A DNA stretch of 669 nt, from the NCBI RefSeq assembly GCF_003334255.1, contig NZ_QOWU01000199.1, one strand, 5' to 3'. This document shows, piece by piece, positions 1 to 292 of the stretch (positions are counted from its first letter, which is position 1; every line of letters begins with the position of its first letter). Below the pieces are notes generated by a model that saw only the letters and a list, made by a program, of their open reading frames with translations, did not search any database and was not told where the DNA came from. Both the position numbers and the translations under genes were made by a program. This DNA is from Escherichia coli. GTDB lineage: Bacteria > Pseudomonadota > Gammaproteobacteria > Enterobacterales > Enterobacteriaceae.

Positions 1-63
1 GACATCAGTACCCGTGATGAAGGCGGGGGCGGAAAGGTCGTGGTTATCGGGCGGCAGGGGTAA
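1..63 (+). CDS. I: Tail assembly protein, lambda gpI-like; 3' end only (5'-partial, upstream of window)
   Basis: Frame +1 reads DISTRDEGGGGKVVVIGRQG then TAA at 61..63. The Gly-rich stretch followed by VVVIGR matches my recollection of the lambda gpI C-terminus, and the position immediately upstream of a J homolog fits lambda gene order (K-I-J). Only 20 codons are visible, so the call leans on synteny plus a short motif. Confidence 0.7.
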   Translation, partial: DISTRDEGGGGKVVVIGRQG

Positions 64-109
64 AAAGAATAAAAAAATCCCGCAGTGATCGCGGACAGGA
101 ACTGCGGGA
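64..109 (-). terminator. Rho-independent terminator-like hairpin oriented for the minus strand
   Basis: Perfect inverted repeat CCCGCAGT (79..86) / ACTGCGGG (101..108), extendable by a T:A pair at 78/109, with a 14-nt loop (87..100). On the minus strand the stem is followed directly by ATTTTTTTATTCTTTTT (complement of 78..64). On the plus strand no U-tract follows the stem, so it is not a plus-strand terminator. Confidence 0.5.
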
Positions 110-168
110 GAGTTACGAAGATTAAGTGTAAGGAATTATTCTTATGTCACGACAAAAAAAATTAACGC
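64..168 (-). ncRNA. Candidate ~100-nt small RNA in the I–J spacer, antisense to the tail operon (hypothetical)
   Basis: Bounded by the candidate minus-strand promoter and the minus-strand terminator. The minus strand has no ORF longer than a few codons across 110..305. The region is AT-rich (about one-third GC by hand count over 111..240) against GC-rich flanking coding sequence. I do not recognise it as a named sRNA. Confidence 0.2.
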
Positions 169-174
169 AGCGAA

Positions 175-202
175 ATTATCAGCGCCACAGTCAGTTTGTG
201 AA
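175..202 (-). promoter_or_regulatory. Candidate sigma70 promoter on the minus strand (-35 TTCACA, 16-nt spacer, -10 GATAAT)
   Basis: Minus-strand sequence reads TTCACA (202..197), then a 16-nt spacer, then GATAAT (180..175); each hexamer matches consensus at 5 of 6 positions. AT-rich context. The predicted start near 167..169 would give a transcript ending at the terminator at 64..109. Motif match only, no expression data. Confidence 0.2.
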
Positions 203-292
203 AATGTGAAGATATTCAGAATTTTTATTCAGTCATGATACAGGCATCCTCCGGGGTGCCTGTTGTTTTTGTGAGTGAACAATTATCACGGT

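Follow-up and report, generated by a model that had tools for sequence, protein, structure and literature searches.

A Hairpin Antisense to a Lambda-like Tail Operon as the Probable Terminator of a PasB / EcOnc22-24 Family Small RNA

What transcript might end at an intrinsic terminator that points antisense to the tail operon in which it lies? The question is raised by a 669-nt stretch of Escherichia coli DNA (the window, by which we mean that whole stretch), which its reading frames and its homology to annotated records identify as the I–J junction of a lambda-like tail operon. A sequence-only reading had drawn attention to a hairpin in the spacer between the two genes, and had offered two explanations: either the hairpin ends a non-coding transcript made from the minus strand, or it insulates the tail genes from antisense transcription. 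With a probability that we put at about 0.88, the hairpin at 78-109 and the U7 tract that follows it (77..71) serve as Rho-independent terminator to a small RNA gene that belongs to the PasB / EcOnc22-24 family. The hairpin finding is correct, and it is already published as the terminator of an sRNA, so that by itself it adds nothing new.

The I–J junction and its hairpins

The Escherichia phage PhiR5_1 is 97.3% identical to the window, and there both genes are annotated, the upstream one as tail tip assembly protein I, a name that it also bears in E. coli genomes; about 140 Stx1a-, Stx2a- and Stx2c-converting phages match the window at 80-95% identity. Among 5,426 complete E. coli genomes, 1,748 have the spacer, with as many as 7 copies in one genome; 147 phage records have it too, most of them from Stx phages. 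It carries no annotation among the matches listed for the E. coli genomes, nor in the phage and genome records inspected. The sequence-only reading had assumed that I stops just left of the hairpin and that J lies to its right on the plus strand, and this proved to be so (Table 1). Its claim that no minus-strand protein gene lies upstream of the hairpin fits the ORF list of the window, which shows none on the minus strand of the spacer between the hairpin and J; those that the minus strand does have all run antisense to coding sequence of J. The spacer is 242 nt long (64-305). Since the I–J gap of lambda is only 60 nt, the putative sRNA gene is an inserted cassette.

Table 1. Features of the 669-nt window, in order of position; promoters, seed, sRNA and motif are predictions
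Feature	Position	Strand	Remarks
Tail assembly gene I, last 20 codons (…DISTRDEGGGGKVVVIGRQG*)	1..63	+	TAA stop 61-63; annotated in PhiR5_1
U7 tract (A7 on the plus strand)	71..77	-	sRNA 3' end expected here
Putative PasB-family small RNA, about 84 nt	71..154	-	homology to 83-nt PasB; primary start possibly ~168
Probable terminator hairpin of PasB-family sRNA	78..109	-	arms 109..101 and 86..78, loop 100..87; repeat finder, folding
GATC (Dam)	87..90		in loop; 12 of 30 distinct loop variants
Candidate seed, RNA UUAAUCUUC	117..125	-	most conserved body stretch, near-invariant and unpaired in the folds, adjoining the terminator on its 5' side
UUCCUU (CUCCUU in most variants), anti-Shine-Dalgarno-like	130..135	-	conserved columns; AAGGAA on the plus strand
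Short ORF MSRQKKLTQRNYQRHSQFVKM	144..209	+	preceded by AAGGAA; status uncertain
Candidate -10 element P2, TAATTT	159..164	-	start ~153; without a -35
Candidate sigma-70 promoter P1	175..202	-	-35 TTCACA (202..197), 16-nt spacer, -10 GATAAT (180..175); 10 of 12 matches
CRP-like site AAATGTGAAGATATTCAGAATT	202..223		core TGTGA-N6-TCAGA at 205-220, 9 of 10 core positions; upstream of the sRNA promoter
Terminator-like hairpin with a stem of 10 bp and a UCCG loop, then UGUUUUUG	240..271	+	35 nt before J
Host-specificity (central tail fibre) gene J, first 121 codons	306..669	+	ATG at 306

The arms of the hairpin, TCCCGCAGT at 78-86 and ACTGCGGGA at 101-109, were taken from the sequence and from a repeat finder; they are 9 nt long and 14 nt apart, and are 100% complementary, with 6 G-C pairs. 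On the minus strand, U7 (77..71) adjoins the stem and leads on to AUUCUUUUU. The plus strand has GAGUUACG after the stem, and no U-run, so that only in its minus orientation does the hairpin resemble a terminator. The sequence-only reading had described a perfect GC-rich stem of 8 to 9 bp, with a U-run in this one orientation, and the description stands. A Rho-independent terminator is recognized by a G+C-rich stem with an immediate U-tract, and both are present here (9 bp, 6 G-C, U7). A weak fold had been considered possible for a stem with so large a loop. The folding is strong on both strands: the minus-strand RNA from 115 to 60 has a dG of -15.7 kcal/mol, against -6.4 +/- 2.2 for 200 dinucleotide shuffles, none of which was as good (z -4.24), and the plus-strand RNA of the hairpin has a dG of -17.0 kcal/mol (z -4.0).

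The loops of intrinsic terminators are typically of 3-8 nt, a textbook size that the 14-nt loop exceeds; in the minimum-energy fold of the minus strand this loop is partly closed by 2 extra pairs, and other variants have one of 10-11 nt. A consensus scan, by which the window has four terminator-like sites against 0.5 expected, gives a minus-strand match at the same U-tract, and does so by accepting only a nested alternative with 6 bp and a 5-nt loop (95..79 plus ATTTTTTTAT). The 3' arm of the terminator is in fact able to pair with a nearer partner on the minus strand within 79-95 (UCCGCG...UGCGGG), and because the loop repeats CCGC, the nested alternative is also present in the E2348/69 and Sakai variants. 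The GATC site that had been placed in the loop is there, at 87..90, but it does not hold as a conserved feature. The idea of a role for Dam was rejected, as GATC is missing from 18 of 30 loop variants, the Sakai type included.

How well is the hairpin kept among relatives of the window? A 15-nt anchor outside the hairpin led to 70 IMG/VR loci with the spacer, at 70-98% identity, and the conservation set for RNAalifold comprised 30 distinct sRNA-sense sequences. The sole consensus helix is the terminator stem, whose 7-bp core (CCCGCAG/CUGCGGG) is kept in all 30, as is a tract of 6-8 U. The outermost two of the 9 bp in the window are not common to the variants at large, the loop is free in sequence with a length of 10-16 nt, and RNAalifold found no conserved 5' stem-loop in the sRNA across the 30 sequences. 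One core pair, G-C in 27 sequences and A-U in 3, is changed on both sides. The tally of pairs with change on both sides was matched by 128 of 500 shuffles. The covariation is real but thin, probably a single event, and the support comes mostly from invariance. When species-representative genomes were scanned with a degenerate hairpin pattern, the true homologues among the matches listed were two E. albertii contigs only, the other matches listed being chance hairpins.

The spacer holds a further hairpin, at 240-271 on the plus strand, which folds at -18.7 kcal/mol (z -4.4). The sequence-only reading had missed this hairpin, as well as the promoter and the body of the sRNA. Its stem is kept among the variants, with changes in the loop and with U-G alternating with C-G. 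Lambda has an analogous hairpin and T-run in its 60-nt I–J gap (NC_001416 ~15467-15495), so that the hairpin of the window is to be counted with the J junction and lies outside the sRNA cassette. Late transcription has to pass this hairpin. There are also short reading frames on the plus strand. The ORF at 144..209 is probably not a conserved gene. A frame beginning MKINVKELF... (window 115-209; L125, L127, L065 and other loci) starts with ATG in most variants and with ACG in the window. Of 39 unique variants, 15 keep this frame open over 39-41 codons and the rest have it truncated; its first 10 codons give a weak codon-like signal in the variation of third positions (8/10 versus 7/20, p = 0.025). 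A plus-strand small protein was considered and rejected, since the ORFs vary in start, frame and length and have a C-terminal block with invariant third positions, which indicates constraint as DNA or RNA and not as protein.

Published small RNAs from the same spacer

A minus-strand promoter, about 90 nt of sequence, a terminator and no ORF lead one to suspect a small RNA gene. Are small RNAs known from this spacer in other strains? PasB of EPEC E2348/69 is an RNA of 83 nt encoded on the minus strand of NC_011601.1 at 1466343..1466261 (Pearl Mizrahi et al. 2021, PMC8550237 Table S6). Its size was confirmed by Northern blot, its level falls in a delta-hfq strain (log2 -6.8), and its 37 RIL-seq interactions give it rank 15 by interaction number (PMC8550237). 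On that genome PasB is flanked by two plus-strand genes, one for a tail assembly protein, with its end at 1466255, and gpJ, with its start at 1466496. The published 3' end, which was estimated from RNA-seq coverage (PMC8550237), is 1466261, the last U of the homologous U-tract. The Northern probe, AATCCCGCAGTGATCGCGGAGCT (PMC8550237), is window 76-95 plus 3 nt, and so covers the left hairpin arm and the loop. In an alignment of the window RNA with E2348/69 PasB, 67 positions of 91 columns are identical; the last 27 nt are the same in both, whereas the sRNA body of the window copy is only ~70% identical to that of PasB.

EcOnc22/23/24 of O157:H7 Sakai are Hfq-CRAC peaks in Sp15, Sp14 and Sp11 (Tree et al. 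2014, PMC4104026), with a Northern band of ~85 nt that is destabilised in delta-hfq (PMC4104026). The Sp15, Sp14 and Sp11 loci are I–J spacers, and the RNA is antisense to I and J. Because the coordinates of Tree et al. lie ~140 nt off NC_002695.2 (the offset for AgvB1 is ~138-143 nt), the probe sequence was used instead; when the Sakai coordinates were applied directly to NC_002695.2, this genome-version offset put the Hfq peak on the wrong hairpin, and that placement was discarded. In the Sakai spacer the match to the probe, GGGAGAGAACGATGAAGATTAAC..., begins in the 3' stem arm and extends to the right; the homologous part of the window is 106-138. Being plus-sense, the probes for PasB and for EcOnc22/23/24 each detect an RNA of the minus strand which contains the hairpin or borders on it, and the hairpin is therefore, in all probability, the terminator of a PasB / EcOnc22-24 family sRNA. 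It counts against this that the descriptor of Tree et al. marks no Rho-independent terminator for EcOnc22-24 (PMC4104026).

The window copy has the marks of the family: an antisense position at I–J, homology to the published RNAs and probes, and a conserved 3' stem-loop with poly-U. Of these lines of argument, the structure, the conservation and covariation, the synteny and the probe identity come from the present analysis, and the RNA of 83-85 nt, its Hfq dependence and its ligation to many mRNAs on Hfq come from the work of others on homologues. For the window copy itself we infer expression as an Hfq-bound RNA of ~83-85 nt. As to the two explanations offered at the outset, the PasB and EcOnc22-24 probes bear out the end of a non-coding minus-strand transcript; insulation would come about with any terminator of such a gene. 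An annotation of the 'empty' 242-nt spacer should show a pasB-family sRNA gene and the terminator that ends it. No Rfam family was found by cmscan for the window (E up to 10) or for an array of four such cassettes (E up to 1); the weak matches to MicX, GcvB and anti-hemB align to generic terminators only, and are far below the gathering scores.

In pathogenic E. coli, both PasB and EcOnc22-24 are abundant and bound to Hfq, and by comparison of sequence and synteny the EPEC RNA and the EHEC Sakai RNAs are one sRNA family from the same I–J locus. The row for PasB carries no note of an EHEC homologue (PMC8550237), and EcOnc is absent from the 2026 Pas preprint. In a 2021 review, the target of EcOnc22 is given as 'unknown'.

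Promoters, tandem cassettes and a possible mechanism

Where would the small RNA begin? By a consensus scan the window has two promoter-like matches, against 0.6 expected. The candidate P2 predicts an RNA of ~83 nt, and the published 5' end of PasB, 1466343, corresponds to window 154; every listed variant has TANNNT at the place of P2. The candidate P1, which the scan places 70-100 nt upstream of the terminator, predicts a start at ~168 and an RNA of ~98 nt; among the variants its -10 element reads TATAAT, GATAAT, AATAAT or CATAAT, and its -35 element is not conserved. For Sakai the predictions are ~92 nt from P1 and 75 nt from P2, versus the band of ~85 nt. In the window variant, P1 is the better predicted core promoter. 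There may be two starts, or the P1 transcript may be trimmed at its U-rich 5' end.

A CRP site was defined as TGTGA-N6-TCACA at an activating distance from a promoter, and CRP-like matches in the window number one, against 0.01 expected. The 22-bp block is invariant even in variants of 70% identity, and the distance from the site to TAAYGC is exactly 42 nt in 39 of 39 unique variants; the length of the sRNA body varies by 14 nt. The predicted centre of the site is at about -60.5 from the P2 start and -44.5 from the P1 start. For CRP, the class I position is -61.5, to which the first of these values is close. Spf is CRP-repressed. PasB is higher in overnight LB than in virulence-activating medium, contrary to Spf (PMC8550237), and this contrast in medium, taken with the repression of Spf, is a suggestive but circumstantial hint of CRP control.

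The predicted fold of the sRNA consists of an open body and the terminator, whose stem and poly-U very probably also form the 3' Hfq-binding module. The seed proposed for PasB is directly upstream of the terminator (Zhu, Shabalina & Storz 2026 preprint). By the pattern of conservation, UUAAUCUUC is the stretch of the window sRNA that would meet its targets, and UUCCUU may have an anti-Shine-Dalgarno role.

Some spacers hold more than one such unit. Among 66 loci, 58 have one unit, with a spacer of 235-254 nt; four have two (L036, L039, L060 and L123; 417-475 nt), and four have four (L021, at 660-1600, L022, L055 and L098; 904-912 nt). The units recur every ~220-230 nt, and each has an inverted terminator, a -10 element and the CRP-like block, but the bodies differ, and one tandem unit has a different stem (TCTCCCGT/ACGGGAGA). 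Of 5,426 complete E. coli genomes, 67 have the four-unit array, an example being that of E. coli O91 RM7190 (NZ_CP015244.1 2095771-2096682); a search of 50,697 phage records found it in none. The cassette has thus multiplied in tandem with differing seed regions and with a CRP-like site in every copy. The preprint of Zhu et al. 2026 contains nothing on tandem PasB copies, promoters, CRP or EcOnc22-24. The tandem cassettes, the invariant CRP-like site and the equivalence of PasB with EcOnc22-24 are apparently unreported.

How might the system work? A cassette of ~240 bp would have been inserted, inverted, between the stop codon of gene I and the hairpin that precedes J. In the lysogen, with the late operon silent, RNA polymerase would start within the spacer, using the -10 element at 164..159, the one at 180..175, or both. 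It would transcribe leftward for ~84-98 nt and stop at the U-tract (71-77), a few bases short of running antisense into I. The product would have an unstructured body with UUAAUCUUC and a CUCCUU-like motif, then the terminator stem and poly-U, which is the usual layout of an Hfq-dependent trans-acting sRNA; the stem and poly-U would serve as the module for the proximal face of Hfq, leaving the open body to pair with targets in trans. For the window copy, the promoter used, the seed and the targets are assigned here by inference from its sequence and its homologues.

One may go further, and see the I–J spacer as an expandable site for sRNA cassettes, with units of about 220-240 bp that are induced by cAMP-CRP in the lysogen and that pair or collide with the late mRNA. 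The arrays are observed; CRP control and an interplay in cis are conjecture, and the reading as a whole we put forward tentatively, thinking it rather doubtful. The RNA of every unit would be complementary to the late tail mRNA over its whole length, so that the sRNA and the late transcript would pair or collide at induction. If this were true, such encounters might trim the expression of J, or the late mRNA might mop up the sRNA.

Alternative readings and related systems

What other work might the hairpin do? The sequence-only reading had raised a role in the plus-strand late mRNA, where the stem could be a 3' stabiliser or processing site after I, or could mask the RBS of a short ORF. The plus-strand RNA does fold equally well, many variants have GGAG in the 3' arm or its flank before the ATG of the MKINV... 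frame, and the excess of third-position change in the first 10 codons points the same way. A mirror hairpin in the opposite transcript is, however, inevitable for any terminator, and the invariant tract of 6-8 U makes sense on the minus strand only. The ORF of the window has ACG and no ATG, the variants run from 10 to 56 codons without always keeping the ATG, and a minus-strand RNA ending at the hairpin has been detected in two strains by two laboratories. It is quite improbable, then, that the hairpin acts mainly in the late mRNA.

We give an even smaller chance to the element being an insulator only, blocking stray antisense transcription into the tail genes, with the short RNA as a functionless by-product. 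One can point to the terminator lying 7 nt from the I stop, and to there being no function yet demonstrated for PasB or EcOnc22-24. Yet parts of the RNA body are near-invariant where the variants have diverged elsewhere, the RNA is Hfq-dependent and has been caught on Hfq in chimeras with 37 partners, and in the arrays the entire cassette, promoter and upstream site included, is duplicated with differing bodies. None of this is what one would look for in an insulator alone. It is hardly credible that the hairpin ends a protein-coding transcript of the minus strand, for instance that of an 88-aa, 132-aa or 83-aa ORF antisense to J. Minus-strand ORFs are indeed found upstream of the hairpin, at 225-491, 233-631 and 358-609, but long frames antisense to a gene such as J are not unusual, none of these is annotated in the inspected records, the promoter lies between them and the hairpin, and the RNAs detected, of 83-85 nt, are too short for any of them. 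The terminator of a PasB-family small RNA is the reading that we retain.

How does the small RNA of the window compare with those of other systems? OOP of lambda is likewise a short RNA with an intrinsic terminator, made from the strand opposite to that of a phage mRNA and hence fully complementary to it. It comes from the immunity/replication region, and acts in cis on the cII mRNA via RNase III. In contrast to this action in cis, PasB has only trans partners on Hfq documented. AgvB and AsxR, anti-sRNAs of EHEC prophages, are also short and bind Hfq. Their genes are inverted cargo of the late region in lambdoid prophages, and each RNA joins a variable 5' part to a terminator module that is conserved. 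They differ in sitting downstream of PR'/stx and not at I–J, and in having an unrelated sequence. Their conserved ~42-nt 3' region (EcOnc01, 02, 03; …GTATCTCATGC…TTGCCCGAACCC…) does not occur in the window, nor did cmscan (E up to 10) match the window to RF02702/RF02703. Membership of the AgvB/AsxR family was rejected on both grounds, location downstream of PR' and different sequence.

EcOnc22/23/24 share with the window the position and orientation in the spacer, the stem, the U7 tract and the UUAAUCUUC stretch, but have a loop of their own, CUCCGCUAACU, without GATC, and differ from the window in the 5' body and the -35 region. The likeness to PasB of E2348/69 takes in the same antisense I–J locus, the stem, the core of the loop with its GATC, U7, the -10 elements and the block upstream of them. 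In the window copy the loop is longer by 5 nt, and identity to PasB is about 74% overall. The bodies differ in that the window has UUAAUCUUCGU and UUCCUU where PasB has UUGAUCUUCAU and CUCCUU. With a body so diverged from that of PasB, the window RNA may have a different set of targets.
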